A stretch of 64,000 nt of DNA, taken from NCBI GenBank assembly GCA_003487265.1, contig DNEP01000006.1:3276-67275 (forward strand). Direction: 5' to 3'. The notes beneath the pieces are model-generated. The model saw only the letters and a program-made list of their open reading frames with translations. It was not told the DNA's origin and ran no database searches. Below, piece by piece: positions 16,045 through 42,895 of the stretch. How positions within the stretch are numbered: position 1 is the stretch's first letter; each line of letters starts with the position of its first letter. The stretch is from Minisyncoccota bacterium. Its GTDB lineage: Bacteria > Patescibacteriota > Microgenomatia > UBA1400 > UBA12028. The position numbers were made by a program, and so were the translations under genes.

Positions 16045-17493
16045 TTGCCCACAAAAAAGGATGGAATGACTGCAGAAGATCTTTGGAAAAGAATCCGAGA
16101 CTCTCTTGAGGTGACGCTTTCACAGGGCTATTTTTCGATGTGGATTAAACCAATTCAAGCCATCTCTTTACATGAATCACCTGAAAAAACACTTCTCACC
16201 ATCTCTTCTTCAAGTTCATATCACTTAAAAATGGCCGAACAGCGTTTTTCAGCACAAATATTAGAGGCGGGAAAACAAATTCTTCCAACACTCAGCGATA
16301 TTCGATTTTCGTTTGAACATGTTGGGCAAAACAACATGCTTCAAAAAAATTTGGAAAGCGATGCTCCCACAAGAGAGCATGGTAGACCTACCGAACAATC
16401 CGCACCGCTTTTCTCCTCGACAGAGTCTTCATATTCTTCGGCGATCCGTCGCGCAGGGCTTCGAGAAGACTACATTTTTGAAACGTTTGCCGTTTCGACA
16501 AGTAACGAAATGGCACACGCCGCAGCGATCGCGGTATCTCAAAATCCAGGAAAGGCGTATAACCCCCTCTTTTTATATGGAGGGGTTGGGGTGGGGAAGA
16601 CACATCTTATGCAGGCGGTCGGCCACAATATTTTAAAAAAAGATCCTAATGCGTCAATTGCGTATATCACAGGAGAGCAGTTCACGAATGAAATCGTTGC
16701 AGGCATTCAGCAGAAAAAGATGATCCAGTTAAAATCTCGCCTACGCAACTATTCCGTTCTCCTCGTTGACGATATCCAGTTTATCGCTGGGAAAGAGGCA
16801 GTTCAGGAAGAATTTTTTCACACCTTTAACGCAATCGCACCACTTGGAGGCCAGATTATTCTCACAAGCGACCGCGCCCCGCAAGAAATCCACCCCTTAG
16901 AAGATCGACTTAAATCAAGATTTGAAGCAGGATTGATCATCGACATCCAACAACCCACATTTGAACTCCGCACCGCCATCCTTCTCATCAAGGCAAAAAA
17001 ACTTCAGCTTAATCTCCCCATGGACTGCGCACAAAAAATTGCATCGGTGATAGAAAGCACGAGAAAACTCGAAGGGGCGCTCGCCAAACTTCATTCTGAA
17101 CACATGCTTTTTAAAAAACCAATTACACTTTCTCTCATAGAAGAAATTGTGGGAACTTCCCAATCCGTTTCATACTCAAAACAAAAGGTTCACCCCCAAG
17201 ACGTCATTCGCGCTGTAGCCGAACAGTTTCATATCACCACAAAAAGTTTAAAAGGCCCTGCGCGATCAAAAGAGTTGGTGCGCGCTCGACATATTGCCAT
17301 GTTTCTCCTTCGCGAGGAAAGCGAAATAACGCTTCAAGATATTGGAGAGATGTTCAACGGAAGAGACCACACGAGCGTTATGCACGCGGTTGAAAAAGTG
17401 AAAACACAAATAACTCAAGATGAGGTAATGAAAACGCAAGTGAACGCCGCGATATCCACAATTTCATTCGCATCATCCACATTTCAAGGGTAG
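16045..17493 (+). CDS. dnaA: Chromosomal replication initiator DnaA
   Basis: The Walker A 'LFLYGGVGVGKTHLMQAVG' and the AAA+ sensor and box motifs are present. The C-terminal DnaA-box-binding domain shows 'ARHIAMFLLRE...' and 'GRDHTSVMHA'. An alternative start is possible at MTAEDLW (16066). Confidence 0.9.
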   Translation: MPTKKDGMTAEDLWKRIRDSLEVTLSQGYFSMWIKPIQAISLHESPEKTLLTISSSSSYHLKMAEQRFSAQILEAGKQILPTLSDIRFSFEHVGQNNMLQKNLESDAPTREHGRPTEQSAPLFSSTESSYSSAIRRAGLREDYIFETFAVSTSNEMAHAAAIAVSQNPGKAYNPLFLYGGVGVGKTHLMQAVGHNILKKDPNASIAYITGEQFTNEIVAGIQQKKMIQLKSRLRNYSVLLVDDIQFIAGKEAVQEEFFHTFNAIAPLGGQIILTSDRAPQEIHPLEDRLKSRFEAGLIIDIQQPTFELRTAILLIKAKKLQLNLPMDCAQKIASVIESTRKLEGALAKLHSEHMLFKKPITLSLIEEIVGTSQSVSYSKQKVHPQDVIRAVAEQFHITTKSLKGPARSKELVRARHIAMFLLREESEITLQDIGEMFNGRDHTSVMHAVEKVKTQITQDEVMKTQVNAAISTISFASSTFQG

Positions 17494-17550
17494 GTGGATT
17501 GTGCATATGTTTCTCTTTTATGGGGAAACTGTGAACAATGTCTGGTGCGC

Positions 17551-17599
17551 GTATCCACAAAAACAAAACTTATCCACACAATCCACAAACTTATCCACA
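17551..17599. promoter_or_regulatory. oriC core: cluster of four DnaA boxes between dnaA and dnaN
   Basis: DnaA-box-like sequences occur at 17551-17559 ('gtatccaca'), 17570-17578 ('ttatccaca'), 17581-17587 ('atccaca') and 17591-17599 ('ttatccaca'), all in the same orientation. A very AT-rich stretch (about 17690-17725) follows and is a candidate DNA-unwinding element. Confidence 0.7.
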
Positions 17600-17729
17600 A
17601 TATTTTTTCTGTTTCGCACACGAAAAATGTACGAACTATTCGAGGGCGTTTTCAAACCATTTCACTTTTCCACACTACTACAAATACCTACTACTTCTTT
17701 CTTTATCTATTATTAGATACAATGCCACC

Positions 17730-18824
17730 ATGAAATGCACAGTGCTTCAGGAAAATCTATATAAAGCAATTTCTGCAATATCCCATTTTGCTCCAGCAAA
17801 AGCACATATTCCGATTCTTTCGAACATTCTTCTTCAATCACAAGAAGGAAAACTATTGTGTTATGCAACGGATTTGCAAGCAGGATTGCAAGTTGAAGTT
17901 GGCGGGAAGATTGAATCAGATTTTTCGATTACTGTCCCTGCAAAAATATTTACGGAATTTATTTCTTCTATCGGCTCAGGGAAGATCATTTTAGAGATTC
18001 AGGATCAATCGCTTATTATTCAGGGTGAAGGAACGAAAACAGTGATTCAGGGGGTCTCTGCGAAGGAGTTTCCAAGCTTTCCAAAAGAGAAAAAGAAAAT
18101 CTGCACGATCGCAAAAAAAATATTTTTACCGGCTGTCCAATTTGGCGGGGCATCTTCTGGCATGGACGAGACGCGCCCTATTTTCTCATCACTTCTTTTT
18201 CGAATATCGCAGGGGGAACTTATTGCGGTGAGCACTGATGGATATAGATTGTCAGAGAAACGAATTGCTCTTTCCTATGAGGGGGAACTCGCAGATCTTC
18301 TTATTCCAGCGCGACTTGTAAAGGAGGTTGTGCGTTTGTTGGACAAAAATCTTGAAGGAAATGTTGAGCTCGCTCTTTCTGAAGACAATGTTCTCCTTTT
18401 TTCATTTGACGAATGGAAAAGTTTTGTGCGGAAAAATGAGGGGGAGTATCCTCCGTACCAGAATATTATTCCAGATCATTTCGTTTCTTTTGTCGAATGT
18501 GACGCAGATGTATTGCAAAAAAACTTGAAAACGGCGATGGTGTTTGGCAAAGAGGGTTCTGGGATTGTAAAGTTACATTTGTCGGAAAACAAGCTCCGCA
18601 TGAAAACATCAACAACAACAGGAGAGCACGTTTCCGACATTGACGTTGGTTTTTCTGGCGAAGATGTTGAGATTGCGTTAAATGGAAAATATTTAGCGGA
18701 GTTTCTTCAGCTCGCTCAGGGGAAGCAGTGTAGAATCTCCATTCTCGAACCACTTAAACCAGCAAAACTTGAAATTGTTGACGACGCATCTTTTCTGTAC
18801 GTTATTATGCCGTTTAAAGTGTAA
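17730..18824 (+). CDS. dnaN: DNA polymerase III beta sliding clamp
   Basis: A three-domain beta-clamp of ~365 aa beginning 'MKCTVLQENLYKAISAISHF'. Typical features are 'RLVKEVVRLL' and a C-terminal 'LYVIMPFK'-like end. The ORF-track start at 17538 is spurious because it reads through the DnaA boxes. Confidence 0.85.
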   Translation: MKCTVLQENLYKAISAISHFAPAKAHIPILSNILLQSQEGKLLCYATDLQAGLQVEVGGKIESDFSITVPAKIFTEFISSIGSGKIILEIQDQSLIIQGEGTKTVIQGVSAKEFPSFPKEKKKICTIAKKIFLPAVQFGGASSGMDETRPIFSSLLFRISQGELIAVSTDGYRLSEKRIALSYEGELADLLIPARLVKEVVRLLDKNLEGNVELALSEDNVLLFSFDEWKSFVRKNEGEYPPYQNIIPDHFVSFVECDADVLQKNLKTAMVFGKEGSGIVKLHLSENKLRMKTSTTTGEHVSDIDVGFSGEDVEIALNGKYLAEFLQLAQGKQCRISILEPLKPAKLEIVDDASFLYVIMPFKV

Positions 18825-18830
18825 AACTTT

Positions 18831-20720
18831 TTATATGGTGGCAGACGCCCGTTGTTCGCTCGCTCTTTTTTGTAATATTTCTTCAGGATCCGTTGTGATA
18901 AGTTGGTGCTCTTGTTCGCTCGCGATTACGCGAATGGCAACGTGACTTTGTCCAGCAAAAAAGAGTCCCTCTCCTACATCCGAGCCCATAAGAAAGCGCC
19001 TTTCCCCCTCACTGAGATAGAATACTTGTGTGAGATGGGGGATTGCCGCGCTTGACTGTTTCATGAGGAATTGGATTGATGAGTTAGTGACGATCGCTTT
19101 TCCGTATTCATTGTTCAAAAAATCCTCAACATCTTGAGTAATTGTGGTGATCCCGAGATAATATTTTCGCGCACGTTTCGCCATTGCGTGAAGGAAGGAT
19201 GCACTATCTTGATAGCGCATAAAGTACCACGCCTCATCAACGATAAGAATGCGCTTTTTTAGAGAACTACGAATACGCGTCCAGATAAAATCAAGAATAA
19301 TAAACATTGCGATAGGTCGAAGGGAATCTTCCATTTCTTTTACAGAAAACACAGTCAGTTGATTTTTAATATCAATGTTTGATGCTTGATCAAATATTCC
19401 AGCAAACGAACCCGACGTGAATTTTTCCAGTCGTACGGCGAGCGATTGCGCTTCTGGCGAACTGATCGCTTTTAATGTCTGGAAAAGATCAACCATCTGC
19501 GGTGGTGTGCGCGATTGTGTGTTTGAATCTGGGGTAATTCCCTTTTTCTGGTATGTCTCAACTAGCGCGCGGTCTAATATCGCATCTTCGGTTGGGGAAA
19601 GTTGTCCAAGCATCACGCGTAACAGCGAATGAATGGAGATGATTTTCATTCCCAACTCATTTTCACCTTCTTGCTTTGAAGAACTTAAGTCAAAAGGATT
19701 GATTTTTTTATCTGAATCGAATGAGAATTGAACGTATTCACCACCCATTGCTCCGCACAGTTTTTCGTATTCATTTTCTGGATCAAGAACGATTACTTCG
19801 GCGTCAAACATGAGCTGTCGCAAAATTTCCAGTTTAACGGCGTACGATTTTCCAGCACCAGATTTCGCAAACACAACCATGTTCGCGTTTTCCATTTGGA
19901 ACCGATCAAACACAACAAGCGAATCGTTATGTTCGTTAATTCCATATAAAATCCCTCGATCGCTGGTGAGTTCGGCGGATGCGAAGGGGAATGTTGTGGC
20001 TAGGGAAGTTGTGTCCATATTTCTCGTGATACGTAATTTATCTACTCCCATGGGCGTGGTTGTTTTAAAGCCGTCCTCGATTTGTAAGGATGCTATTTTA
20101 CTCACAATTAACAGAGAGCCGAGGAGCGAGCGAACCTTATTCGTGATTTTATTTAATGCCTCCAACGAACTGTCGCTAATGGTGATGTACAATCCAAACT
20201 GGAAAAAACGCTCCGCACCTTTTGCGAGCTGTTCTTGAATAAGTCTCGCGTCTTCGAGTTTAATTTCTGTGTTGATGTTGCTTAATTTCCCTTGTCGAAC
20301 ATCCGAAGAGATCTCCGCTTCCATTTCTGTGATTTTTCTTCGAAGATCATCCAAGATTTCTTTTACTTCAATCGGGAAAATGTGCATTGAGATATCGAGT
20401 GAGTGGGGAAAATTAATAAGTGGCGCGAGCCAGTTTGCGGGGACGGTTCTGGGGTATCCTGCAACAAACAGGGTGCGAATGTAGGTTGAGTTGATTTTTT
20501 GATAGGTAAAATCAACCTCGATTGCTTCTGGGGCAATAATATCTTGAATACTTACAAGCCCCGCCGAAAATGTGCGAATTTGATCATCGAGCGACGCTTG
20601 CACGCTTTTTCCTGCAGGCGTTGTGATGTTTGTTTGCGCTGAAGATTTCCCCTGAGATTCGTTTTGGCGAGTGTTTACATGAGGTGTTTTTTTTGTAAAA
20701 AAGGGGAGAGAGATTGCCAT
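18831..20720 (-). CDS. VirB4/TraC/TrbE-family type IV secretion ATPase (Gram-positive PrgJ/TcpF-like)
   Basis: 629 aa. The Walker A 'VVFAKSGAGKSYAVK' and Walker B region 'RILIVDEAWYFM' are present. 'LGITTITQDVEDFL' matches the conserved VirB4 C-terminal motif block. This is the AAA_10/DUF87 architecture. Confidence 0.75.
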   Translation of the reverse strand: MAISLPFFTKKTPHVNTRQNESQGKSSAQTNITTPAGKSVQASLDDQIRTFSAGLVSIQDIIAPEAIEVDFTYQKINSTYIRTLFVAGYPRTVPANWLAPLINFPHSLDISMHIFPIEVKEILDDLRRKITEMEAEISSDVRQGKLSNINTEIKLEDARLIQEQLAKGAERFFQFGLYITISDSSLEALNKITNKVRSLLGSLLIVSKIASLQIEDGFKTTTPMGVDKLRITRNMDTTSLATTFPFASAELTSDRGILYGINEHNDSLVVFDRFQMENANMVVFAKSGAGKSYAVKLEILRQLMFDAEVIVLDPENEYEKLCGAMGGEYVQFSFDSDKKINPFDLSSSKQEGENELGMKIISIHSLLRVMLGQLSPTEDAILDRALVETYQKKGITPDSNTQSRTPPQMVDLFQTLKAISSPEAQSLAVRLEKFTSGSFAGIFDQASNIDIKNQLTVFSVKEMEDSLRPIAMFIILDFIWTRIRSSLKKRILIVDEAWYFMRYQDSASFLHAMAKRARKYYLGITTITQDVEDFLNNEYGKAIVTNSSIQFLMKQSSAAIPHLTQVFYLSEGERRFLMGSDVGEGLFFAGQSHVAIRVIASEQEHQLITTDPEEILQKRASEQRASATI

Positions 20721-20760
20721 AATGTCATCTTAGCAGGTTCGTGTGATATCTCGCAATGAA

Positions 20761-21456
20761 TTAGCGCGATTGAACCACTGGACTTGTGTACGCCTTTGAA
20801 CTCTCCACAATTTGACCATCAGAAGATCCTGGATTGTAGATGGTGTAGAAAATATGAATAAGTTCTTGAGTGTTGAGTTGTTTAACAATAATTCCAATGC
20901 GCGCAAGTTGTGAAATAATGTGATCGCGTTTTGGTTCAAGATCGGTTTTTGCTTTTTCAATAAGTTGCGGAATGTTAATTTGTGATTCTTGCGTTGATTT
21001 TTGCTTTTTAAATGGAAAAGGTGATGTTGGAAGGATTGAAGAAAGGGTGCTCGATTGATATGAAATGACAAGATAGAATTTTTTATCCAAAATGTTTCGC
21101 TCTTTCACAAGTGTGGAAACAAACTCTCGATACTGCGCGATTTGCGCGCGTTTTTGTGGGGCGTGTGTTCCACGCTCGGTTTCTTGAAGATGTCCCAAAT
21201 AACCCGAGATGTCTTTTTTTTGTGATCGAATGACAATTTGTATTGGAAAAGAAAGAGAATTGAGAATTCCCGCGTATGTGTAAATCATCGCTTCTTGTTC
21301 TTCTTCAGAGAGAAGATCAAAGTTAACCGATGATGCCGACATCACCATACTTGCCGTGCCATCACGAAGTAAAACGAGATTGTTCGTAATATCTAAAACA
21401 TCAAGAAATTCTTGCGTTGTTGATGAAAGGTGGTTGGAGGATGAGTGGGCGCTCAT
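20761..21456 (-). CDS. Hypothetical soluble protein immediately upstream of the VirB4-like gene
   Basis: 231 aa with no TM segment and no recognisable motif. It is co-oriented and tightly spaced with its neighbours. Confidence 0.35.
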   Translation of the reverse strand: MSAHSSSNHLSSTTQEFLDVLDITNNLVLLRDGTASMVMSASSVNFDLLSEEEQEAMIYTYAGILNSLSFPIQIVIRSQKKDISGYLGHLQETERGTHAPQKRAQIAQYREFVSTLVKERNILDKKFYLVISYQSSTLSSILPTSPFPFKKQKSTQESQINIPQLIEKAKTDLEPKRDHIISQLARIGIIVKQLNTQELIHIFYTIYNPGSSDGQIVESSKAYTSPVVQSR

Positions 21457-21465
21457 AGTGGTAGT

Positions 21466-22515
21466 TTAGGAGGTTTTCGCGAGAAATTCTAGCGGAGGAA
21501 TAATGGTGTTATTTGTAGTGAGTGTGTAGTTGTTAAATTCGAGGCCGTTTTTTTCTGTGCGAATACTAAAAGCTCCATTTTGTAGGGGGGATGTAATAAA
21601 GAATTGTCCTAATTTGTTCGTTTTGACTGCGCGCACCGCGATGCCCGTTTGATCAACAATTTCCACAATTGCCCCATCAACAATTTTACGATTTTGGTCG
21701 AGTACCATTCCAACAACAACGTTTGGTTGTTTTGGAGTTGATGGGAAGGGGAGACTACTATTTGTTTTCACCGCGATTTCCTGTTGGGTGGTAGTTTTAA
21801 TCACATTTTGTGCAAATGTGTGCAGCGTTTGTGTTGTTTCACCACGTTCTTCTTGTTGTTTTGATTTGTTTTGTGCCGCCTCAAATACGGTGACTTTTCC
21901 CGAAGGTTTAAGGAGGACTGATGAGGGTTGATGTGATTGTTTTTCAGCCGTAGATTGTTGGGTGGTAATAGGTTGGGTTGCTGGAGGAATAACGCGTTGT
22001 ATTTGTGCATGAGGCTTGGATTGTTGTAATGTGATAGGCGTTTTGTTGTTATGAAACAGTTGTGTGATGTTTTTTGAGTTCACAAAAAGATCATTTGGCT
22101 CAGACTGTGTTGAAATGGACTCAAAATACGCGCGAACTCGTTCGGAGCGTCCGATTTTTTGGTCGAGAAGGGGTTGCGATCGATCTCCTAATTTTTGTTG
22201 AATATACGCGAACGCATCTGGAATGCGGATTGTTTTTTTCCAGTAAAATTTTGTTGGTTTGTATATCGCGTGTAGGAACGCAACAACCCATTGATCTAGG
22301 GGGCGTTCTTCGAGCGGAACAAACGCAAACGCCGCTCCTGTGCCAATAATGATAAACACGAGAAAGAGTTTGAGTATGTTTGGAAGCGCGATCGAGTACA
22401 CGAGGAGCGCAACACCAACCGATCCAAGTAACTCGAAGAATTGCTTGAGCGTCATGTTTCCAATGAGGTGAAACTCGTACGCAGTGATATTCTGCGGGAC
22501 AGGATGCTCGATCAT
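21466..22515 (-). CDS. PrgI/VirB3-like membrane protein fused to a C-terminal beta-sandwich (carboxypeptidase-regulatory-like) domain
   Basis: The N-terminus 'EFHLIGNMTLKQFFELLGSVGVALLVY...FVFIIIGTGAAFAFVPLEERPLDQWVVAFL' matches the PrgI-family pattern: a two-TM hairpin ending in 'P-x-x-x-RPLDEW'. The C-terminal 'VVGMVLDQNRKIVDGAIVEIVD...FSIRTEKNGLEF' looks like a CarboxypepD_reg/Cna-B-type fold. Confidence 0.5.
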   Translation of the reverse strand: MIEHPVPQNITAYEFHLIGNMTLKQFFELLGSVGVALLVYSIALPNILKLFLVFIIIGTGAAFAFVPLEERPLDQWVVAFLHAIYKPTKFYWKKTIRIPDAFAYIQQKLGDRSQPLLDQKIGRSERVRAYFESISTQSEPNDLFVNSKNITQLFHNNKTPITLQQSKPHAQIQRVIPPATQPITTQQSTAEKQSHQPSSVLLKPSGKVTVFEAAQNKSKQQEERGETTQTLHTFAQNVIKTTTQQEIAVKTNSSLPFPSTPKQPNVVVGMVLDQNRKIVDGAIVEIVDQTGIAVRAVKTNKLGQFFITSPLQNGAFSIRTEKNGLEFNNYTLTTNNTIIPPLEFLAKTS

Positions 22516-22580: not shown

Positions 22581-23594
22581 TTATTCTGTTTGGATTGCGG
22601 AGGTCATCACCTCAATGGTTGCGGAATTTCCTTCGGCGTCCATTGCTGTTCCTGAAAAAATAGCGAAAGGCATAATGGTGTTTGTTGATGGAATCGTTTG
22701 ATATTCAATGCGCATTGTAAAAAGTTTTGAGGATCGCAATTCTTTTGGGGTGAGTAGTTTTCCGGAAATCTGGTATGAAAGAAGGGAGTATTCCCCATTC
22801 TTCATTGAAGAAATCATCTCTGGAATTGAACGCACATTTGCATGACCGCCATCAACTGGTTGATATGCGACGTTGTGAATGAATATTTTTCGAACATATC
22901 CTTGCGAATCAACAAGAACGGTTGCTGGGTTGTTTGTTGTTCCTGTATGAGAAAACGAATATCCTGAAAAGGAAAGAGAAAAAGGAATAGAAAAATAGGT
23001 TGCCTGCTCTTCGATTGTTTGGGTGAGTTCACTTTCCCCCTTCAAAAATTGAATATTGGAAAGTTGTGGCGCGAGCTCTAATGTTGGAGAAAAGAGCGCG
23101 AGCGCCTCTTTTGCCAGAAGAATCGCTTCTTCTGTGCGCACGGTTTGCATTTCGGTTTGTGGTGGAATATTTCCCGTATACCGTATGGTATTTGTTTCAC
23201 TGTCATAAAAAAGGGAATACCCAAATTCTTTTTGTGTCCACAATGATGTTGATGAGCTTTTTTCCATATTCCACGCTATTGCGAGTTCTTGTAGTTTTGT
23301 GAGTGAAATGGGGGGGAGACTGTTTTGGTTTTGATAAATAGGGAGCGTTTTTGGAAGGGTTGGTGTTGGCCCAATGTATTCAAATGTTTGAATATTTTGT
23401 TCCTGTGTGAGTGTTGTTTGAATGCTGGGCTTTTCGGGAACAACGATTGGGGGTTCACTGGGGAGTGGTTGCCTGTTTTGTAACAGGGTGAGAATGAGTT
23501 GTAAAACAAAAACGAGGATTGTTGCGAGAATAATGAATGTAATAAACCATCGTTTCACCGGAATTTGTTTTTTTATTTGGATGTTTGTATTCAT
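22581..23594 (-). CDS. Bitopic membrane protein (candidate VirB8/PrgL-like component)
   Basis: Single N-terminal TM 'WFITFIILATILVFVLQLILTLL' followed by a ~300-aa extracytoplasmic region. I chose the start at the MNTNIQ codon, which leaves a 4-nt overlap with the upstream gene. Confidence 0.35.
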   Translation of the reverse strand: MNTNIQIKKQIPVKRWFITFIILATILVFVLQLILTLLQNRQPLPSEPPIVVPEKPSIQTTLTQEQNIQTFEYIGPTPTLPKTLPIYQNQNSLPPISLTKLQELAIAWNMEKSSSTSLWTQKEFGYSLFYDSETNTIRYTGNIPPQTEMQTVRTEEAILLAKEALALFSPTLELAPQLSNIQFLKGESELTQTIEEQATYFSIPFSLSFSGYSFSHTGTTNNPATVLVDSQGYVRKIFIHNVAYQPVDGGHANVRSIPEMISSMKNGEYSLLSYQISGKLLTPKELRSSKLFTMRIEYQTIPSTNTIMPFAIFSGTAMDAEGNSATIEVMTSAIQTE

Positions 23595-26440
23595 TCTTCC
23601 TCCTGTTGTGCGCCTTCGGTGTTTTGCGATGCGTCGGGGGAACAAGAAGATGTGACATAATCATTTATCGCAACGTCCGGATCGGGAACGGCCTCAAGAA
23701 TATTGATCCCTAAGGCTTCATAATGAAGGTGATTCCCGGTGGAATTTCCAGTTGAATCGGTTTTTCCAATAAGATCTCCAACTTGTATAGACATGGAACT
23801 GTTTTCTGGCATTCCAGCGAAGTTTAAAAGGTGGGCAAAAATAAACACAAGACCGTCGTCGGAAAGGAGAACGACATGCTTTCCATATCCTGGGTCAAGT
23901 CCATTACCCTCTGCATAAAACAGCGCTTTACCAGAAAATGGGGCGTACACAGGTTCATCTGCTCCAAGCACAATGTCGAGCGCAGATCCAGGCCCAGAAA
24001 CATATTCTCCAGATATGTTTGGAATTGAGGATGTGTACACGGCGTGGGGATCTCCGTTAGTGTAGAATTCCCCCAACTGCGTAACTGTTCCACTTACAGG
24101 CCAGCATCCCACACTTGCAACCCCTTGACCGTGAAGTGTTGAGGTGGGGTCAAGCATCATAATATCCGACTGATTTGCGGTGTTTGCGGTAAAAATACGA
24201 ACCGCGATTAACGCCGGAATGGTGATTGCCATTCCAGATGATGCTGAAAAGATAGGTGATTTGCTTGCAATCGAAGCGCCGACCGAACCCAACCCACTTG
24301 CTCCACCCATCGCCCCCTGTCCTCCAACCGCTCCTGCAACTTTTGAGCCACCCGCAACTCCCGCACTCGTCGCTCCCCCTCCTCCGCCCCCTCCACCCAA
24401 AAATGACATGAGTTTCATTGCCCCCATAGCCATTGCGAGCAAACCACTTGCTATAAGTGCAAGCAAACTCAGCAAGATTTTTACAAGCTTTCCCAATCGG
24501 GAAACAGTGTTGAGAAGAAAATCTTCTGTGGCCTCTCCAACAATGGGAATTTTTCTTAACAACTCAGCATATTTAAACGTCTGGTCTAGCGCGGGAATTG
24601 CCCCCGCTCCCCCAGGGATAAAAGTGAGTGCGGTGGTAAGTGCTTTTTTTCCAAGTTCATAATCCGCTTCGTTAAATTCTCTATTTTGCGCTGTGCTTTC
24701 TCCAGAAATTGCAGGAAGCGCGCCAAACGAATCTGGTTCAGAATAAAAGAAATCAAAATCTTTACCAAAAAACTCACCAGCCGATTCAAGAGAAGTTGAA
24801 CCATGATAATACGCGAGAAAACGCTGCCTTTGTTCTTCGGTGGCCGTTGCCCACGCGTGTTGGGTGCCCAAAATTTTCCCCATTTTATACTTGAGTGCAC
24901 GTTGTGCAGAGGAGAATTCTCGACGTTCCCTCTCATTTTCTTCTGCTTGTAGTTTTGCTTGATTTTCAAGTGCATCTCTTCGAATGTACATTCCGCGAGA
25001 CACAATGCGATATCCCTGAAGAAAAACATCTTCCTCAAGTCCTTTGAGTGAGTTTTGATCGAGTGGGAGTGGAGAATGTACTGCGTTATTGTGTGTGTCA
25101 CGCGCAACACTGTTTCGCACGAGTCGAATATATGCGCTAAATGACTCTGCCCAATCTGTATCATAAATGGTGTGCAAGAAGGGGAGAATGCGCGACCGTT
25201 CTTCGTCGGTTAATAAATCTTCAAAAATTCTCTCAAATTGTTTTATGTTAATCGTGTCGATGGTGTGTCCAGAGATTGCCAAGGTTTGGAGTCGAACCAT
25301 AATTCTACGAATGTCGGACTCGGGAATGTTTGCTTTTTGCAAAAGTTGTTCAAGTTGTTCCTCCATAAAAGCTGTTGACGCTTGAGTGGTCCACCCAGCT
25401 TTTTCGAGTTTTTTCTGATCGATGTTTTGAAGAACTTTGCCCGCAGTTTCATCTTCAATAATTGCTTTTACAAGATCCTCAATCTTGGGAGGTTCAACGT
25501 TATTTTTTGCAAGCGAGGTGAGCTGTGTTTTGAGCGACAGTTGAAAATGTGCATCAAGTGAGAGTCGCTGCAAACATTGGATGTACAGTTTTTGCCGTCC
25601 GTCAAACGAGGTGAGCGTGCGAATCAAATCTTCACCGGTGAGTTGTGATAACTCAAATAAAACTATATTTGAGGTTGCGGGAAGGAGGTCGCTGATAAAC
25701 TTTTCGCGTTCTTGATCGTCGGTTATGCCGTATGAAATCGCTAGTCGTGCAAGAAGTGACTGTCGAACGAGGGTAACCTGATTCCGAAGCTCTCTGTCGG
25801 ACTTTAAGATGTCTGTTAACGAAAGATTTTGTTTTTCTTCTTCTTTTTCTCGCTTTTCTTCTTCTTTTTTGTCTTTCTCTTGCATTGCGGGGATCGCAAT
25901 CCCAGCGGATCTCGGTTGATCGCCTGCCGCCACAGGTTGTTCCCCAACCGCCGCCTTTTCTTCTTCGGTTTGTGGCGATCGCAATTCTTCTTCTGATAAA
26001 TCATGCGCTTCCCGCGCAATTTCAATAAGCGTTTCAGCCTCGCGCAACTGTGTGAGAAGATCTGAAAGTTTTTGATCGGGAGAGAGGCGACGTTCTATAC
26101 TGTATTCTTCAAAAATTTCATGCCCGAACAAATCATGATCGACTTTTTTTGGAATAATATAACGAATGGTGAGAATGAGCACCCAAAGTTGATTAAATGA
26201 CAACCTTCCCAGCGTTTGATCGTCGGGGTGATCAATCATCTCGCGAAGCATTGCTTTGTATCCACCGGAGGTTTGAATGCGGGATAAAACGCCCAACGAA
26301 CGATCCGCGAGATCATATGATCGCTTCATGTAGTCGCGCAACGCATACGCGACCTTACTTATGTTTTCATCTTGAAGGTGTTCGCGGGTAAAAAATGATC
26401 GAATTGGCGCGCTATCCAGCATACGCGTATTGTACCGCAT
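23591..26440 (-). CDS. Large membrane protein with a C-terminal M23 (LytM) peptidase domain
   Basis: 949 aa. The C-terminus 'GYGKHVVLLSDDGLVFIFAHLLNF...IGKTDSTGNSTGNHLHYE' matches the M23 zinc-site H-x-x-x-D ... H-x-H arrangement. A poly-Gly/Ala segment ('GGGGGGGGATSAGVAGG...') is flanked by two TM helices. The N-terminal ~600 aa are helical with a KE-rich coiled coil. Confidence 0.65.
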   Translation of the reverse strand: MRYNTRMLDSAPIRSFFTREHLQDENISKVAYALRDYMKRSYDLADRSLGVLSRIQTSGGYKAMLREMIDHPDDQTLGRLSFNQLWVLILTIRYIIPKKVDHDLFGHEIFEEYSIERRLSPDQKLSDLLTQLREAETLIEIAREAHDLSEEELRSPQTEEEKAAVGEQPVAAGDQPRSAGIAIPAMQEKDKKEEEKREKEEEKQNLSLTDILKSDRELRNQVTLVRQSLLARLAISYGITDDQEREKFISDLLPATSNIVLFELSQLTGEDLIRTLTSFDGRQKLYIQCLQRLSLDAHFQLSLKTQLTSLAKNNVEPPKIEDLVKAIIEDETAGKVLQNIDQKKLEKAGWTTQASTAFMEEQLEQLLQKANIPESDIRRIMVRLQTLAISGHTIDTINIKQFERIFEDLLTDEERSRILPFLHTIYDTDWAESFSAYIRLVRNSVARDTHNNAVHSPLPLDQNSLKGLEEDVFLQGYRIVSRGMYIRRDALENQAKLQAEENERERREFSSAQRALKYKMGKILGTQHAWATATEEQRQRFLAYYHGSTSLESAGEFFGKDFDFFYSEPDSFGALPAISGESTAQNREFNEADYELGKKALTTALTFIPGGAGAIPALDQTFKYAELLRKIPIVGEATEDFLLNTVSRLGKLVKILLSLLALIASGLLAMAMGAMKLMSFLGGGGGGGGATSAGVAGGSKVAGAVGGQGAMGGASGLGSVGASIASKSPIFSASSGMAITIPALIAVRIFTANTANQSDIMMLDPTSTLHGQGVASVGCWPVSGTVTQLGEFYTNGDPHAVYTSSIPNISGEYVSGPGSALDIVLGADEPVYAPFSGKALFYAEGNGLDPGYGKHVVLLSDDGLVFIFAHLLNFAGMPENSSMSIQVGDLIGKTDSTGNSTGNHLHYEALGINILEAVPDPDVAINDYVTSSCSPDASQNTEGAQQEEE

Positions 26441-28337
26441 TTGATTGTTCGGTTGCTGCGGCAGTAGGTGTGTGTGCGGGCGATGATTTTGTTGGAGCGT
26501 CTGTGCAGTTTTCGCAAATGTATCCCATTGTTATGAATGGGTTGTACGAAACTCCCGCAAACGATGCGATAAAGTTGTCAACTCCAACGTAGCCGTGCGA
26601 AGTTGTGGTTGAAAAAACGCCGTCTTTCTCTTGTTTTTCAGCTCCTTTACCTAATGTGTCCCTCATTTCGCATGCAAAACACACATCGCATTCGCCAACT
26701 CCACCATCAAGGTGTTTGTAATGAAACTTTCCATCGTTGCACATTTTACATGTTCCATCGTGCCACGCCGTTTCCCATCGTTTGGGTTTGTTGTGATTGA
26801 TGATTCGAATTTTTTCGTCGAGCGTGAGTGATTCTGTTCGAACGGCGCGTTGAAACTCTTCAAGCGAAGAAAAGCGCGATGGAATGCCCAAACCAAGGCT
26901 GTTTGTAGAAATGGAAGAAGCAAAATTGGGATTTAATCGTGTTATTCCTCCGGCTGATCCTGCGGTACAGTCAACAACGCTCACAACCCTTTTTAACACA
27001 TGACTCATTGAGGTATTTTGAAACGAACTAAAAAGGGCGTTGCGCGCAGAAACAAGCGCGGTTCCTTTATGTGATTGAAACACTTCCGGTTTTGCAACTT
27101 TTTCATATTGTTCCCATGCAACCGCGGAATCAAACATTTTTTGTTGCAAAATCGTGTTGAGCGCGACCTCGGCATTCATAAGAATAAGCGCCTCGGCTTG
27201 ATCAATAGAAATGTGTTTTTTCAATAACAATCCCCACACATCAAGAAAAATATCTGTGAGAAACTGTGATGACTCAGCAATAATCGGTTGATAGATCGTT
27301 CTAAAAAGATTCATCGCCTCTTGTTGTGCGACCGCGAGTTGCGCAATCTCCTCGGCGGGAAGCGCGTTTGTGAGAAGTGATGAAAAAAACGGCTCAACCT
27401 CTTCATATGCGAATGGGGGGTGAATAATGTGCGCGCGCATGATTTCCGATTCGGTGGGCGCCGAAGATGTGCGAGATGCCGAAGCCTCCCCCACCCCCCA
27501 CGTTTTCACAAATTCTGATATTGCTTGCGCGTGTTCTTGATGGGAAAAATCGTTGAATGCTTGATGAAGTAAAATAATCCACGCGTCTTTTGTGGGGAGA
27601 TAGCAGACACGATACACATTCCAAAATGATTTTCCCTCTTTGTAGGTTTGCGTATTAGACGGATACACCGCGAAAACTGGCGGGCCTATGAGTACGGGGG
27701 GGCGCTCGTTGGCATCTAGTCCGAGTCCCGCAAGCGCCTCGGTGGGAAGGGGCGCGGTGTACCACCCCCAACCCTCGGGTGGGGTGGGGAGAGGTTCATC
27801 TTCAGATTGCGCGAGTGCGTTAATATACGTGTGCGCAACTTCCGGTAGATTTTCCGCAATAAACTGCAAAAGTTCGAGCGTCTCGATAGCAAGGCGTTCC
27901 TCTTTTTTATATCGGTCCTCAAACGGATTTCCCAAGGCAGATTGAAAATTGGGATTTCGTCTTGCGTACTCAATCGCCTTTTTGCACTGTTCGCGGATTG
28001 TTCCACTATACAAAGGCAGTGCGGCATCCCATTTTCCCTGTTCATTTACAAGCGGAATCATTGCGGTTTCATGAAAGGGAAGGTGGAGTTCTTCTTTAAT
28101 CGCCGACTCAAAAATAAACTGCAGGTGAAGAAAAAACTCATGCTCGATTTTTTCCCAATTTCCCTCATGTTTCCCAATTAATTCTGCGCCTTTTGAAGCC
28201 CATGCGTGAAATAGGTTGAGAAGTGCGACGCGCGTGAGTTGAGAATATTCCGAGGTTTGTAGTGCGCGTTTTTCAACGGCTTGACGCAGTTTTTTTGTTT
28301 CAGTTCTAGATAATTGTGGTTGAAGATGTTCTCGCAT
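26412..28337 (-). CDS. Large hypothetical protein with a Cys-rich (zinc-ribbon-like) C-terminus
   Basis: 641 aa with no TM segment. The C-terminal cluster 'CKMCNDGKFHYKHLDGGVGECDVCFACEM...CENC' is zinc-ribbon-like. It is co-oriented with the M23 gene and overlaps it by 29 nt. Confidence 0.4.
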   Translation of the reverse strand: MREHLQPQLSRTETKKLRQAVEKRALQTSEYSQLTRVALLNLFHAWASKGAELIGKHEGNWEKIEHEFFLHLQFIFESAIKEELHLPFHETAMIPLVNEQGKWDAALPLYSGTIREQCKKAIEYARRNPNFQSALGNPFEDRYKKEERLAIETLELLQFIAENLPEVAHTYINALAQSEDEPLPTPPEGWGWYTAPLPTEALAGLGLDANERPPVLIGPPVFAVYPSNTQTYKEGKSFWNVYRVCYLPTKDAWIILLHQAFNDFSHQEHAQAISEFVKTWGVGEASASRTSSAPTESEIMRAHIIHPPFAYEEVEPFFSSLLTNALPAEEIAQLAVAQQEAMNLFRTIYQPIIAESSQFLTDIFLDVWGLLLKKHISIDQAEALILMNAEVALNTILQQKMFDSAVAWEQYEKVAKPEVFQSHKGTALVSARNALFSSFQNTSMSHVLKRVVSVVDCTAGSAGGITRLNPNFASSISTNSLGLGIPSRFSSLEEFQRAVRTESLTLDEKIRIINHNKPKRWETAWHDGTCKMCNDGKFHYKHLDGGVGECDVCFACEMRDTLGKGAEKQEKDGVFSTTTSHGYVGVDNFIASFAGVSYNPFITMGYICENCTDAPTKSSPAHTPTAAATEQSNAVQYAYAG

Positions 28338-28675
28338 GTGATCTTTCTGATGTGATTCTTCGTGCGAGCGAGGAAATCTATCAAACGATCACAGGAGCAG
28401 TGCTGTGCGTAGCGCTTGAATCCGAAGCCCCACACGATGTCTCGTTCCTGGCTTAGGTGTTGCTTTCGAAAAGCGACACCCACACAGTTGCGGTACAGCC
28501 CGCGATTTACACGCGGTTCCGAGTAGATCCACTATGATCGAGTCGAGGAAAGATTGCAAGAGGGTGATGTGCGTTTTGTGCGCGCGTGCTTTGCGCGCCT
28601 TGAATCTTTTTCGAACCGCCCCTTGATTTTCCAGATGATTCCCTGATATGAATAGATACAGAAAGTGAGGCGAAT

Positions 28676-30313: not shown

Positions 30314-30336
30314 AACAGATGTGGTAAAATAAAGAT

Positions 30337-33846: not shown

Positions 33847-33898
33847 TATCATCCGTTAACTACGTGTTTGCAAAGATTTTATTATCGAATTGCTTGTG

Positions 33899-38255: not shown

Positions 38256-38696
38256 TTACGGTTGATAAATAGTGAACTGCATGATCGAGGTGACGCCGGT
38301 AAAGTTCGACAAAAACAGCATAATCAACCACGAAGAAATGGCAACCAAAATTCCCAGTAGTGCGAAAGAAAGCGTTTTCTTTCCCGCCTCGGTCATTTTT
38401 GGGTTTCCCCCGCTAAGTAAAAAGGTGAATGCGCCAACAATTAACATAACAAATGATGATAATCCGACTGCCGTGACCGCAATGTTTAATACATTTCGCA
38501 CCACACATTCTAGTCCAGAAAGCGTGGGAATTTCGTATGTTGCTGGGCCGTTTCCTAAATCCATGGTGACTTGTTGAACGCAGCCTTTGGAGGCATTCCA
38601 TTCATTGAGCTTTGTCTGAGCGGAAATTGTTGCGGGTGTTACAAAAGAAACGGAACACAGAACGACGAACGCAATACACGAGGTGAGCAATTTCAT
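38256..38696 (-). CDS. Small two-TM membrane protein, paralog 1 of 7 (putative T4SS-type pilin family)
   Basis: Signal peptide, then a hydrophobic helix, the loop 'LSGGNPKMTEAGKK', and a second helix. This is the same architecture and loop motif as the six downstream paralogs. Confidence 0.5.
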   Translation of the reverse strand: MKLLTSCIAFVVLCSVSFVTPATISAQTKLNEWNASKGCVQQVTMDLGNGPATYEIPTLSGLECVVRNVLNIAVTAVGLSSFVMLIVGAFTFLLSGGNPKMTEAGKKTLSFALLGILVAISSWLIMLFLSNFTGVTSIMQFTIYQP

Positions 38697-38785
38697 ATGT
38701 GTAGTTTAACATACGAACGACCGCTTCTGCATTCGCAGAGATTCGCAAGATGTTTACTAAACCGATTCGAGTACCAATTTGAGTA

Positions 38786-38815
38786 CAAAAAGGCCCCGTT
38801 TTTCAAGCGGGGCCA
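38786..38815 (-). terminator. Rho-independent terminator after the paralog array
   Basis: On the minus strand the GC hairpin GGCCCCGC-(loop)-GCGGGGCC is followed by a T-run. It lies directly after the stop of the 38847-39188 gene. Confidence 0.6.
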
Positions 38816-38846
38816 AGGTTTTCAAAATGTATGAAGTGAGTGTGTA

Positions 38847-39188
38847 TTAGAACGGTCGTTTGATCTGATCGCCGAGGTGAAACACATCAATTCCAAAGAA
38901 GTACGCGACAACTTGCATGAGCGCATATGAAGATGCAACGATTGCGAGTCCGACCAAGGAAGCGGTGATTTTGTTTCGAGCGCTTTCGGTCTTGCTCTTG
39001 TCGCCACCGGACATAATCCACTCAATACCGCCAATAACAAGATATGCGAACACCAAAACAGCCGAGATTAACAAGGCCAAATTGAGAACACTTGTAAAAA
39101 GCAACCCAATATCCGTGATTTTTACGTTTCCATCATTGACTGGGTCAATGGTAATAGTTGGCTTTGCTTGTGCGAGAAGTGCGAGCAT
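38847..39188 (-). CDS. Small two-TM membrane protein, paralog 2
   Basis: '...VIGGIEWIMSGGDKSKTESARNKITASLVGLAIV...FFGIDVFHL' fits the shared family motif. Confidence 0.5.
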   Translation of the reverse strand: MLALLAQAKPTITIDPVNDGNVKITDIGLLFTSVLNLALLISAVLVFAYLVIGGIEWIMSGGDKSKTESARNKITASLVGLAIVASSYALMQVVAYFFGIDVFHLGDQIKRPF

Positions 39189-39270
39189 GTATTCCTCCTT
39201 AGACTATGTGTGCATTTTACCTTGTTTACGTGTTCGGTGCAAGCGGGCGGTGTTTCCCGCGGTTTCGCAT

Positions 39271-39669
39271 TTACAGTACGTAATATTTGTCTTTATCCCA
39301 ATCAACAGGTTTTAGTTGGTCTTGTTTAAGCGGTGTTTTCTCGTTTCCATCCTTTATTTTTTCTAAATTGACGATATTGAGTCCAAAATACCATTGAATA
39401 ATTGCAAAAATGGCGTACGCAGATGCGGTAACCGTGAGCCCAATAATGGCATTGGTGATCATTTGTTTTGCGCTGTCGAGCTTTCCTTTGTCTCCTCCTG
39501 CAAGAACCCACTGTAATCCACCGAAGACTAAATAGAAAAATGTTGCAATACCTGCAATTAACAACAGCGTTCCTGTTGCGGATCCAACGTACTTCCCCAA
39601 GTCAAAAATATTCACAACGGACCCTTCAACTTGCAGGCCTCCTAAAATATCAAGTCGTTGTGTGATCAT
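39271..39669 (-). CDS. Small two-TM membrane protein, paralog 3
   Basis: '...VFGGLQWVLAGGDKGKLDSAKQMITNAIIGLTV...YFGLNIVNL'. Confidence 0.5.
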   Translation of the reverse strand: MITQRLDILGGLQVEGSVVNIFDLGKYVGSATGTLLLIAGIATFFYLVFGGLQWVLAGGDKGKLDSAKQMITNAIIGLTVTASAYAIFAIIQWYFGLNIVNLEKIKDGNEKTPLKQDQLKPVDWDKDKYYVL

Positions 39670-39672
39670 ATC

Positions 39673-40029
39673 TTATTTCCCCAACAATCTTGGAAATACA
39701 GGTTGAAGTAGGCTTAATCCAAAGACGCTTTCCACAAACAACGCGATCGCTGCGACACCCGCCAACACCCCAAAACCGACGATGGACTGCATGATCATTG
39801 TCTTTGCGGAATCAATTTTCCCCTTGTCGCCTGCGGCACTCGTCCATTCCCACCCCGCGCGAAGCAAGTTAACAAGAACCATGATTCCACCAAGAACGAC
39901 CAGCGTTTGCCACAACACCGCAATATATGTGGTGAGTACAAGCGCAGAACTCGCAGTATCCTTCACCGTTTGAAGTTTTGTGGGAAGAACAGGATTTGTG
40001 ATCGCTGCTAAAAGCGTTGTGTTCATCAG
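39673..40029 (-). CDS. Small two-TM membrane protein, paralog 4
   Basis: '...LLRAGWEWTSAAGDKGKIDSAKTMIMQSIVGFGV...VFGLSLLQPV'. I moved the start to the second Met to give a 4-nt overlap with paralog 5. Confidence 0.5.
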   Translation of the reverse strand: MMNTTLLAAITNPVLPTKLQTVKDTASSALVLTTYIAVLWQTLVVLGGIMVLVNLLRAGWEWTSAAGDKGKIDSAKTMIMQSIVGFGVLAGVAAIALFVESVFGLSLLQPVFPRLLGK

Positions 40030-40424
40030 CATCCTCCCCAAATATTGTTCAAGATGAGGATGGGATTCAAGATATCTATTCCAAGAACCCCACCGACAAT
40101 CCCAATGATCGCCTGCGAAACAATCACGACCACAAGTCCAATCGCCCCGTTAATCATTGATTGTTTTGCTGTGTCGATCTTCCCTTTTTCGCCATTCGCG
40201 GTAATCCACGTGAGTCCCGCGAACACCATGTACACCAAGAACATAAGTCCGCCAAGTGCAGTGAAAAATCCAAGAAAAACAGAGATGAGTGTTTCAAGTG
40301 GTCCAGTTGCAACTGCAGAACAATCGCCACTGAAATTTGGGCTCAATTTTTCACTTGCGCTTTTCACAAATCCAGAGAGAGGATTTGTGCTTGCTTCTAG
40401 TGCTAGTAACTTCTGTAACATCAT
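40026..40424 (-). CDS. Small two-TM membrane protein, paralog 5
   Basis: '...VFAGLTWITANGEKGKIDTAKQSMINGAIGLVV...VLGIDILNPI'. Confidence 0.5.
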   Translation of the reverse strand: MMLQKLLALEASTNPLSGFVKSASEKLSPNFSGDCSAVATGPLETLISVFLGFFTALGGLMFLVYMVFAGLTWITANGEKGKIDTAKQSMINGAIGLVVVIVSQAIIGIVGGVLGIDILNPILILNNIWGGC

Positions 40425-40431
40425 TGTTTCC

Positions 40432-40770
40432 TTATGGCGTGACTAGTTTTGGATTGAGGAAGTACGTGGCGTTTCCAAACAACACCCATCCAATAATACC
40501 CATGATAATCGGTGCAGAGACTAACAACAACAACCCCAATATGCTCATGTTGAATTTTTGCATCACTTTTTCGTGTGTTTTTGTATCACCGTTCGAGGTG
40601 ATGTACTGAAATCCTGCGAATACAATGTTAAACAATGCGATTAAGCCACCTACGACTGAAACAAAGACCATCATATTATTGATGAATAGAATGATCTGTC
40701 CACTTGTCCCATAACCGTCTAACGGTGAAGGTTGTGTGATTGTTCCAAAAAATCCATATAGCATAGTCAT
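40432..40770 (-). CDS. Small two-TM membrane protein, paralog 6
   Basis: '...VFAGFQYITSNGDTKTHEKVMQKFNMSILGLLL...LFGNATYFLNP'. Confidence 0.5.
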   Translation of the reverse strand: MTMLYGFFGTITQPSPLDGYGTSGQIILFINNMMVFVSVVGGLIALFNIVFAGFQYITSNGDTKTHEKVMQKFNMSILGLLLLVSAPIIMGIIGWVLFGNATYFLNPKLVTP

Positions 40771-40779
40771 ATTGTACCA

Positions 40780-41127
40780 TTAGATCGCTGGGTTAAGGAT
40801 GTCAAATCCTGCACCGAAGAATACGAGTGACAAGATCTGAACAATCCAATACGCCCCGATTACAAGGAGAAATCCAATAAGCGCGGTTTGAATCGTTTTT
40901 GACCCTTTTTCGAGTCCTTTTGGATCACCTCCAGATGCGACAATGGTGATTCCACCAAACACAAGCATAACAAAGATGATTAACCCACCAAACAGAAAAA
41001 TGTTTGGTAAAAACACATTGATAATGCTCGCGGGATTGGGAAATTTTGAGTCAATAGTTGCCCCAGTATTCGAGTTTAAGATGAGTTCTTGTTTGAAATC
41101 AACGACGGCAAGCAACGATCTGGACAT
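40780..41127 (-). CDS. Small two-TM membrane protein, paralog 7
   Basis: '...VFGGITIVASGGDPKGLEKGSKTIQTALIGFLL...FFGAGFDILNP'. Confidence 0.5.
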   Translation of the reverse strand: MSRSLLAVVDFKQELILNSNTGATIDSKFPNPASIINVFLPNIFLFGGLIIFVMLVFGGITIVASGGDPKGLEKGSKTIQTALIGFLLVIGAYWIVQILSLVFFGAGFDILNPAI

Positions 41128-42824: not shown

Positions 42825-42895
42825 CGCTCCTCGGCAGGAAGGGTACATGGCGACCATGTATTTATGTATGATACTATATCTCAAAAGATTCTGCT

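Follow-up and report, generated by a model that had tools for sequence, protein, structure and literature searches.

A long-form PrgI/VirB3 subunit with a tethered C-terminal beta-sandwich in the chromosomal type IV secretion locus of a Microgenomatia bacterium

Patescibacteria possess type IV secretion systems (T4SSs) composed of VirB4, TrsD, PrgI/VirB3 and VirB2-like pilins and related to MPF-FATA systems (Wang et al. 2023, PMC10633639; Quinonero-Coronel et al. 2025, PMC12102498). They are usually devoid of a relaxase, are often encoded near dnaA, and are essential for the epibiotic growth of Southlakia (PMC10633639; PMC12102498); the Patescibacteria T4SS is the first one reported to be essential for its own bacterium (FEMS review). 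VirB8 was described as largely missing or rarely detected in these organisms, and no VirB3-VirB4 fusion was found among them (PMC12102498). In this study, we analysed a stretch of 64,000 nucleotides (nt) of contig DNEP01000006.1 (positions 3,276 to 67,275; assembly GCA_003487265.1) from a Minisyncoccota bacterium of the class Microgenomatia, referred to as the window, and within it the gene of an exceptionally long PrgI protein. The window system is a Patescibacteria T4SS in kind, as it contains PrgI, TrsD, VirB4 and VirB2-like pilins, lies near dnaA and shows no relaxase among the scanned ORFs; the locus is the published chromosomal T4SS of this group. This secretion system has been described before, and databases already apply the label 'PrgI family protein' to the large family that includes the gene. 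The extended architecture of its product and the class-specific tails mentioned below are not discussed in the searchable literature, including both of these papers; 'carboxypeptidase', PF13620 and protein lengths do not occur in the text and tables of the 2025 survey (PMC12102498).

Homologs of VirB3 have cytoplasmic N- and C-termini ('IM/cyto', i.e. inner membrane and cytoplasm), bind VirB4 at its N-terminal domain and are sometimes fused to that protein (reviews). Their typical size is 10-15 kDa, with short extensions only at both termini (FEMS review). The Gram-negative representatives, TrwM of R388 and Agrobacterium VirB3, are likewise small anchors of the VirB4 N-terminal domain, with two transmembrane (TM) helices and cytoplasmic termini, and no sequence match between the window protein and the solved VirB3 chains was detectable. 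In natural VirB3-VirB4 fusions the C-terminal addition is VirB4 itself, and not a tethered beta-sandwich of the kind described below. PrgI of the Enterococcus faecalis plasmid pCF10 belongs to the same Pfam family as the window protein, is encoded directly upstream of a CD1110-type VirB4 and has its hairpin in a comparable position (18-61 versus 18-64); the similarity of the two proteins is weak but collinear (E 0.03). However, pCF10 PrgI consists of 117 amino acids (aa) and ends with a short basic tail, whereas the window protein is about 245 residues longer and terminates in a beta-sandwich. Moreover, the pCF10 system serves plasmid conjugation and includes both a coupling protein and a relaxase, whereas the window system is chromosomal and lies beside dnaA, with neither of these found in the window.

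The closest annotated relative found outside Patescibacteria, and the sole match in the plasmid collection, is the PrgI of a Miltoncostaea oceani (Actinomycetota) megaplasmid, NZ_CP064357.1. This annotated protein of 122 aa is 34% identical to residues 20-101 of the window protein (E 2e-10), including the GRP(I/L)DxW motif, and its gene is followed by those for a TrsD-like protein (337 aa; 29% identical to that of the window, E 4e-26) and a DUF87 VirB4, which is the gene order of the window. It ends about 17 residues past the point at which the extension of the window protein starts, and has neither a linker nor a beta-sandwich. A long form is found in Southlakia epibionticum (Saccharimonadia), where the essential 'PrgI family protein' SEML1_0010 is encoded by 903 nt, or 300 aa, with PF12666 at 5-90 (PMC10633639, supplementary tables). 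The gene order there is as in the window, but the tail was annotated as a helical fold similar to TFIIS domain 2 or KIX (156-200 and 261-290), in contrast to the beta-sandwich of the window protein. Long PrgI proteins thus seem to be general in Patescibacteria, with tail domains specific to the class.

We have found that the N-terminal part of the window protein, of about 105 residues, is a bona fide PrgI module. Its match to PF12666 covers profile positions 1-87 of 91 and scores 34.9 bits, the curated cut-off being 27 bits; pCF10 PrgI scores slightly lower (32.6 bits). Hydropathy indicates two adjacent hydrophobic helices, at residues 26-44 and 50-68, and the AlphaFold2 model, calculated with a 120-sequence alignment, places the hairpin helices at 23-41 and 46-65 with a predicted local distance difference test (pLDDT) value of about 97, and a further helix at 73-85. 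The earlier note on this DNA, made from the sequence alone, had proposed such a two-TM module fused to a C-terminal extension, and both the Pfam search and the hydropathy bear out its reading of the module. Its statement that PrgI proteins are normally of about 120 aa agrees with the lengths of the pCF10 and Miltoncostaea proteins. The motif P-x-x-x-RPLDEW, which it took as typical of the family, recurs in the Miltoncostaea relative (as GRPIDDW) but is absent from pCF10 PrgI.

The most conserved part of the protein is the short tail preceding the hairpin, with a median identity of 84% as compared with 69% for VirB4 and 40% for the TM hairpin; residues H4, P7, Q8, Y13, F15, G19, M21, T22, K24 and Q25 are invariant there. 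Further invariant positions (F26, A64, P67, D74, P87, W92 and P99) occur at the flanks of the hairpin, and the post-hairpin segment has a median identity of 58%. Direct comparison of the family profile with the pCF10 PrgI sequence by hhalign gave a probability of 0.2%, and no VirB3 chain was recovered among Protein Data Bank (PDB) sequences by profile search. As a similarity this weak cannot serve as evidence, membership in the family rests on the Pfam hidden Markov model, on synteny and on the Miltoncostaea intermediate. As regards synteny, the species scan included one genome per GTDB species, and the best 80 of the 309 genomes with a relative were analysed in detail. The gene lies upstream of virB4, its stop codon being 9 nt before the start of the TrsD-like N-terminal piece of VirB4, in the same frame and separated by the stop and three codons, and VirB4 follows. 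The TrsD-like gene adjoins that of PrgI in 76 of the 80 loci, and the order with VirB4 in the next place is kept in 64. Placement directly upstream of a split VirB4 supports the assignment of the module to a core T4SS membrane subunit, as the earlier note had it.

Homology to short PrgI proteins stops at about residue 101-105 (the alignment with the Miltoncostaea protein ends at 101), and everything past this point is an addition to the PrgI module. With 349 aa, 244 of them beyond the module, the protein is far from the size of a typical VirB3. Its relatives share this property. The best 120 of 908 proteins with E<=1e-3 in a word-indexed search, referred to below as homologs, are nearly all of 340-470 aa and mostly carry both PF12666 and PF13620, and in the 80 genomes analysed in detail all the matches cover the query to residue 333 or beyond. 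The named relatives are assigned to Pacebacteria, Woesebacteria, Collierbacteria, Microgenomates or Patescibacteria. With the N-terminal module as the only query, exhaustive HMMER searching yielded 1,681 representative clusters at E<=1e-3, of which 1,206 reached E<=1e-10. Among the best 150 representatives inspected, 137 have the C-terminal domain, always at the extreme C-terminus; the remaining 13 appear to be fragments, being 113-291 aa long with linker-like or nonsense sequence at the end. In the 481-694-aa forms the linker is simply longer, and an extra hydrophobic segment is absent. In the loci examined, no ORF (open reading frame) neighbouring PrgI carries a paralogous copy of the domain, and phage records gave no match to the long PrgI. 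Module-only searches of an index of 5.8 billion proteins returned just 7 and 1 short entries (P0122 lying at a contig end) and were uninformative on architecture. These results show that PrgI of Pacebacteria, Woesebacteria, Collierbacteria and Microgenomates gained a C-terminal addition of about 245 residues, made of a variable disordered tether and a conserved sandwich of about 104 residues; this architecture is fixed in the lineage and kept in hundreds of related species. The occurrence of similar extensions in PrgI homologs elsewhere was a point on which the earlier note had called for a survey.

The tether consists of a middle block and a linker, with a weak helix (120-134) and a nearly invariant P168, and residues from about 135 to 245 are predicted to be disordered (pLDDT 44-55). 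Identity among homologs falls to 11-17% in the middle block and linker, and the linker length varies between 111 and 222 aa in the loci and reaches about 490 aa among the representatives. The linker was described in the earlier note as Q/T-rich, which is accurate, Q, T, S, P and N accounting for 52% of residues 161-262. A beta-sandwich is indeed present behind it, but the folded unit comprises about 104 aa (pLDDT 94-98, strands between residues 267 and 347) and not the approximately 230 aa assumed before, the tether in front of it being largely disordered.

The anticipated resemblance to carboxypeptidase-regulatory or Cna-B folds was confirmed by structure prediction and fold matching with Foldseek. 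Transthyretin-like (TTL) domains of carboxypeptidases N, D and M were among the best matches (E 7.7e-6 to 1e-3, root-mean-square deviation 2.1-3.5 A), 2nsm being aligned over 83 columns at 2.1 A with E 7.7e-6. Foldseek also retrieved CnaB2, SdrD-B, pilin domains and the N-terminal extension (NTE) of SusC. Some of the matches are to cytoplasmic enzymes: the beta subunit of pyrogallol transhydroxylase (rank 2), HIU hydrolase and catechol dioxygenases. When PDB sequences were searched by profile, the TTL domain of carboxypeptidase M was matched, which shares the motif TNxxGxF with the window protein. PF13620 (CarboxypepD_reg) matches residues 267-329 (nt 21529-21717) with E 8.7e-5 and 23.2 bits, which is below the cut-off of 32.3 bits; the ortholog P0170 passes it with 35.7 bits, and most homologs carry a precomputed PF13620 match. 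The C-terminal domain has the same fold as CarboxypepD_reg, TTL and CnaB domains (2nsm, 3mn8, 5aq0, 8bdw, SdrD), but differs from them in a family-specific, invariant lead-in, LPFPxxPxxPN, and in its location on an inner-membrane subunit of a T4SS, the relatives residing on enzymes, adhesins, pilins and TonB-dependent transporters. Sixteen positions in or just before the domain are invariant: L255, P256, F257, P258, N265, G269, M270, E285, A296, N300, G303, Q304, F305, G314, F327 and P341. Pfam and profile scans of the protein recognised no catalytic or ligand-binding motif. A reading of LPFP as a sortase motif was discarded, since T-G and a hydrophobic tail are both lacking and the sequence precedes the domain instead of lying at the C-terminus.

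A separate problem is the integrity of the gene, as the public records of this sequence are interrupted. The top database match, A2378_01390 of Candidatus Pacebacteria bacterium RIFOXYB1_FULL_44_10, is 205 aa long, 100% identical to the C-terminal part of the window protein, and begins at an internal GTG. M1 of the long PrgI is invariant in our alignment. The corresponding ENA scaffold_1113 has an N gap within the PrgI gene (...ACAATCCG-NNNNNNNNNN-CCGCATT..., the position of NNNNNNNNNN being N10), the N run in GenBank MFWX01000033.1 is longer, and the gene was annotated either as products of 135 aa and 205 aa, as in ENA, or as the 205-aa product alone. The truncated annotation A2378_01390 results from this gap inside the gene, and is corrected here. 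One could therefore suppose that the 349-aa ORF is an artefact, in which a short PrgI and a separate beta-sandwich gene were misjoined at the collapsed gap (at residues ~95-97) or are separated by a frameshift. Such a possibility, raised in the earlier note as what would overturn the fusion, is scarcely credible. The window does not contain any N, the ORF is uninterrupted, and the gap was closed in frame on a flanking overlap of 3 bases (CCG), which accounts for its collapse. The family consensus is reproduced exactly at the join: the invariant residues P87 and F102 are spaced by exactly 16 residues in 120 of 120 homologs, and P0010 has an identical KKTIRIP across this region. As the join is in frame and this spacing is kept in all the homologs, nothing is missing there. 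Both modules are found in a single ORF in 80 of the 81 loci used for this comparison, in addition to the 137 representatives mentioned above. In the exceptional locus, L053, an in-frame TAA (1045-1047) separates the PrgI module from the tail, leaving ORFs 772-1044 and 1048-1887 in the same frame; a sequencing error, a pseudogene and a natural split are all conceivable explanations.

With the architecture established, the question arises which side of the membrane the tail occupies. The earlier note assumed an extracytoplasmic domain and an adhesin- or wall-binding-type fold on the subunit. Our data disfavour this location, and the features of the sequence suggest that the tail probably lies inside the cell rather than outside it. 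The protein has two TM helices only, which places both termini on the same side; a third hydrophobic segment was found neither in the 120 homologs nor in forms of up to 694 aa, and none is present past residue 105 in the window protein. The 43 residues following the hairpin contain on average 6.7 lysines and arginines, as compared with about one in the turn between the helices. The products of the PrgI, TrsD and VirB4 genes match successive parts of the profile of the single-chain actinobacterial SCO6880 (13-76, 247-291 and 327-477, with weak E-values). The occurrence of the fold in cytoplasmic enzymes, noted above, points the same way. Also the rates of divergence are telling, since the C-terminal domain is 47% identical among the loci, similarly to TrsD (48%) and DnaA (44%), whereas the external neighbour p354 is 22% identical and detectable in 18 of the 80 loci, and the M23 peptidase protein encoded next to it is recognisable among loci in its catalytic domain alone. 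The domain evolves like TrsD and DnaA and unlike the external neighbours, which argues against a host-facing adhesin. The signature of CnaB/MSCRAMM adhesins is lacking too, as the protein has no signal peptide or LPXTG and ends with ...PPLEFLAKTS; an adhesin-type role is therefore unlikely.

The opposite arrangement would have the tether cross the wall zone and the sandwich bind peptidoglycan, the S-layer, the T4SS pilus or the host surface. It would supply a wall-spanning element, which T4SSs of the monoderm Patescibacteria seem to lack, and the reported scarcity of VirB8 speaks in its favour. Several other observations weigh against a cytoplasmic tail. Transthyretin-like, CarboxypepD_reg and CnaB domains are mostly extracytoplasmic, as is true for the carboxypeptidase TTL, CnaB2, SdrD-B, pilin and SusC NTE domains retrieved by fold matching, and tethers rich in P, T, Q and S, such as the linker of the window protein, are typical of wall-spanning proteins. 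A composition classifier trained on the proteins of this genome gives extracytoplasmic-like scores to the linker (+0.11) and to the C-terminal domain (+0.036) and assigns the N tail and the post-hairpin segment to the cytoplasmic side, though it is crude and weak evidence, its leave-one-out ranges overlapping and beta-sheet composition being a confounder. The sub-threshold PF13620 score of the window protein also counts against the interpretation that we favour as a whole. Nevertheless, an external tail would require a hairpin inserted N-out/C-out, or unconventional export. The two-helix architecture of every member examined, the absence of a signal peptide or LPXTG signal, the positive-inside bias of about 7 charges for N-in/C-in, and the topology of VirB3 proteins and VirB3-VirB4 fusions all speak against this. 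The N tail would have to be outside as well, yet it is 84% identical and its divergence tracks the VirB4 N-terminus. We consider an extracytoplasmic tail, the main rival reading, rather unlikely.

Additional information came from co-variation, estimated from pairwise distance matrices of 48 loci by partial Mantel tests controlling for DnaA and DnaN; the significance of such mirror-tree tests is inflated for related sequences, and the small number of loci also counts against placing much weight on them. The known partners TrsD and VirB4 gave a partial r of 0.54 (p 0.0003). The N-terminal module correlated with the N-terminal 230 residues of VirB4 (0.48, p 0.0003), which served as a positive control, and with TrsD (0.34, p 0.0007), both as expected for VirB3. 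The C-terminal domain correlated with TrsD (0.38, p 0.0003; 0.31 when VirB4 was added to the controls), and no significant correlation was seen either with its own N-terminal module (0.08, p 0.15) or with the M23 domain (0.10, p 0.23, n=25). The contrast between TrsD and the external M23 domain counts against an external tail. The correlation with the gene-proximal half of TrsD was 0.27 and with the distal half 0.36 (p 0.0003 for each); as it is no weaker with the distal half, simple linkage is an unlikely cause. These results lend soft support to a functional coupling between the C-terminal domain and the cytoplasmic TrsD piece of VirB4.

In the light of these findings, we regard it as fairly probable that the hairpin is inserted N-in/C-in and that the tether and sandwich surround the TrsD/VirB4 ATPase in the cytoplasm, in six copies, with the sandwich docking on TrsD. 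In this mechanism, the hairpin would be inserted as in other VirB3 proteins, and one tether with its beta-sandwich would be present on the cytoplasmic side per VirB3 copy, that is six per machine by analogy with R388. The tethered modules would hang around the ATPase, and the beta-sandwich would be a protein-binding module docking on the TrsD-like N-domain of VirB4. Docking might stabilise, regulate or load the junction between the ATPase and the membrane, or recruit something to it, in a gene cluster devoid of a coupling protein and a relaxase.

A passive role of a cytoplasmic tail could also be imagined, in which it does not dock on the ATPase and serves as a generic spacer or as a solubility or regulatory element (for instance as an entropic bristle or as a tag for degradation or assembly), the sandwich being its passive cap. 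The hugely variable length of the linker (111 to ~490 aa) and the lack of a recognised catalytic or ligand-binding motif would fit such a role, as would the different, helical extension of the 300-aa Southlakia PrgI, which suggests that the exact fold may not matter. However, the invariant positions in and before the domain (LPFP, N265, E285, N300 and GQF among them), its family identity of 47%, its strict retention at the terminus and its co-variation with TrsD indicate a specific, selected interaction, and we find a passive appendage very unlikely. A more far-reaching proposal is that VirB3 acquired a receptor or gating function, the six flexibly tethered modules, which would be beta-sandwiches in Microgenomatia and helical bundles in Saccharimonadia, docking on TrsD/VirB4 in the cytoplasm and recruiting substrates or controlling access to the channel, in replacement of the coupling protein VirD4 or of VirB11. 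This is speculative and, in our estimation, quite unlikely.

The features of the PrgI gene and of the surrounding T4SS genes are collected in Table 1.

Table 1. Positions in the window of the long PrgI gene, its parts and the neighbouring T4SS genes
Feature	Position	Strand	Basis
Complete ORF, long-form PrgI/VirB3 subunit, 349 aa	21466..22515	minus	ORF list; homologs
N tail, residues 1-25, MxEHPVPQNITxYxFHLIGNMTLKQ	22441..22515	minus	conservation
PF12666 PrgI match, residues 5-88	22252..22503	minus	34.9 bits vs 27
Two-helix TM hairpin, residues 26-67, tight conserved NLPxxIKWP turn	22315..22440	minus	hydropathy, AlphaFold2, loop consensus
K/R-rich segment after the hairpin, residues 68-105, helix PLEERPLDxW followed by PTKFYWKKxxxIP	22201..22314	minus	alignment
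Scaffold N-gap of public records, collapsed in the window	22220..22241 (about)	minus	scaffold comparison; also L081 ~2170-2200, L082
Residues 106-245, middle block specific to the lineage and disordered linker rich in Q/T/P/S	21781..22200	minus	pLDDT 44-70; identity
C-terminal transthyretin-like beta-sandwich, residues 246-349	21469..21780	minus	AlphaFold2, Foldseek
TrsD-like protein, 231 aa, detached VirB4 N-terminal piece	20761..21456	minus	NCBIfam TrsD/TraD 1.2e-5
VirB4 ATPase, 629 aa, CD1110 family	18831..20720	minus	395 bits vs cut-off 325
Single-TM protein p354, upstream of PrgI, fast-evolving, no family match	22581..23645	minus	profile scans, hydropathy, identity
949-aa protein with C-terminal M23 peptidase	23591..26440	minus	PF01551 47.7 bits
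Seven VirB2-like T4SS pilin paralogs, two TM each	38256..41127	minus	all match PF18895, three at or above cut-off

VirB4 of this locus is split, because the TrsD-like piece (CD1110 profile positions 16-124) and the ATPase (positions 184-734) tile one CD1110 VirB4 profile over 18831-21456. The synteny M23-p354-PrgI-TrsD-VirB4-dnaA/dnaN is strongly conserved across the 80 species loci. The dnaA and dnaN genes, at 16045-18824, adjoin the cluster, and tmRNA and tRNA genes are also present in the window, which makes the context chromosomal and origin-proximal. The pilin genes form a tandem array, like that reported for Southlakia; they encode proteins of 146, 113, 132, 122, 132, 112 and 115 aa and lie about 16 kb from the PrgI operon, beside the genes for PilN and PilO (41533-42884). 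Among the scanned window ORFs of at least 150 aa, no coupling protein or relaxase family was detected.

The gene for the M23 protein is found upstream of that for PrgI in 38 of the 80 loci, and its product is a candidate for the VirB1-type wall hydrolase of the system. It has about 640 N-terminal residues without a hydrophobic segment and with stretches rich in E and K, then TM segments at about 646-680, a long glycine run and the peptidase. If its N-terminal part is cytoplasmic, it would be a second large cytoplasmic appendage of this T4SS, on a subunit that is normally external. An ORF of 641 aa (26412-28337, minus strand) overlaps the start of the M23 gene and so comes first in the string of T4SS genes; Pfam and NCBIfam gave no match to it, its product lacks TM segments, and tblastn found no match to it in the 80 related loci. 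Directly upstream of it lies a cobalamin riboswitch, RF00174 (28422-28570, minus strand; 37.5 bits against a gathering threshold of 31.5), and the 171-aa ORF at 28389-28904, which overlaps the riboswitch, is unlikely to be a real gene. An ORF of 549 aa (33899-35548, minus strand), located between the two T4SS sub-loci, shows about seven hydrophobic segments but matches no family; its product is a candidate for a polytopic subunit of the VirB6 type.

Further observations concern other parts of the window. The stretch 30001-34000 has a low guanine-plus-cytosine content (0.37, as compared with about 0.44 elsewhere) and holds an ORF of 1169 aa (30337-33846, plus strand), which is preceded by one of 545 aa (28676-30313, plus strand); neither has a Pfam or NCBIfam match. 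A weak Baseplate_J-like match (24.6 bits) was obtained for an ORF of 806 aa (61024-63444, minus strand) that adjoins a sortase gene (60184-61002, minus strand); this ORF may be part of a phage-tail-like element or what is left of one. ARAGORN called the tRNA at 50334-50423 (minus strand) tRNA-Ser (anticodon tga), whereas in Rfam the best clan member was tRNA-Sec (53.8 bits); the gene most likely encodes a tRNA-Ser with a long arm, not a selenocysteine tRNA.

VirB3 has hitherto been regarded as a minimal membrane anchor of VirB4, and here a whole bacterial class keeps a conserved folded domain tethered to it. Should the topology be inverted relative to the one we favour, the tail would instead inform on how the machine spans the wall. 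This domain and its co-variation with TrsD, together with the long PrgI of different fold in the genetically tractable Southlakia, offer a testable handle on the cytoplasmic organisation of this machine.

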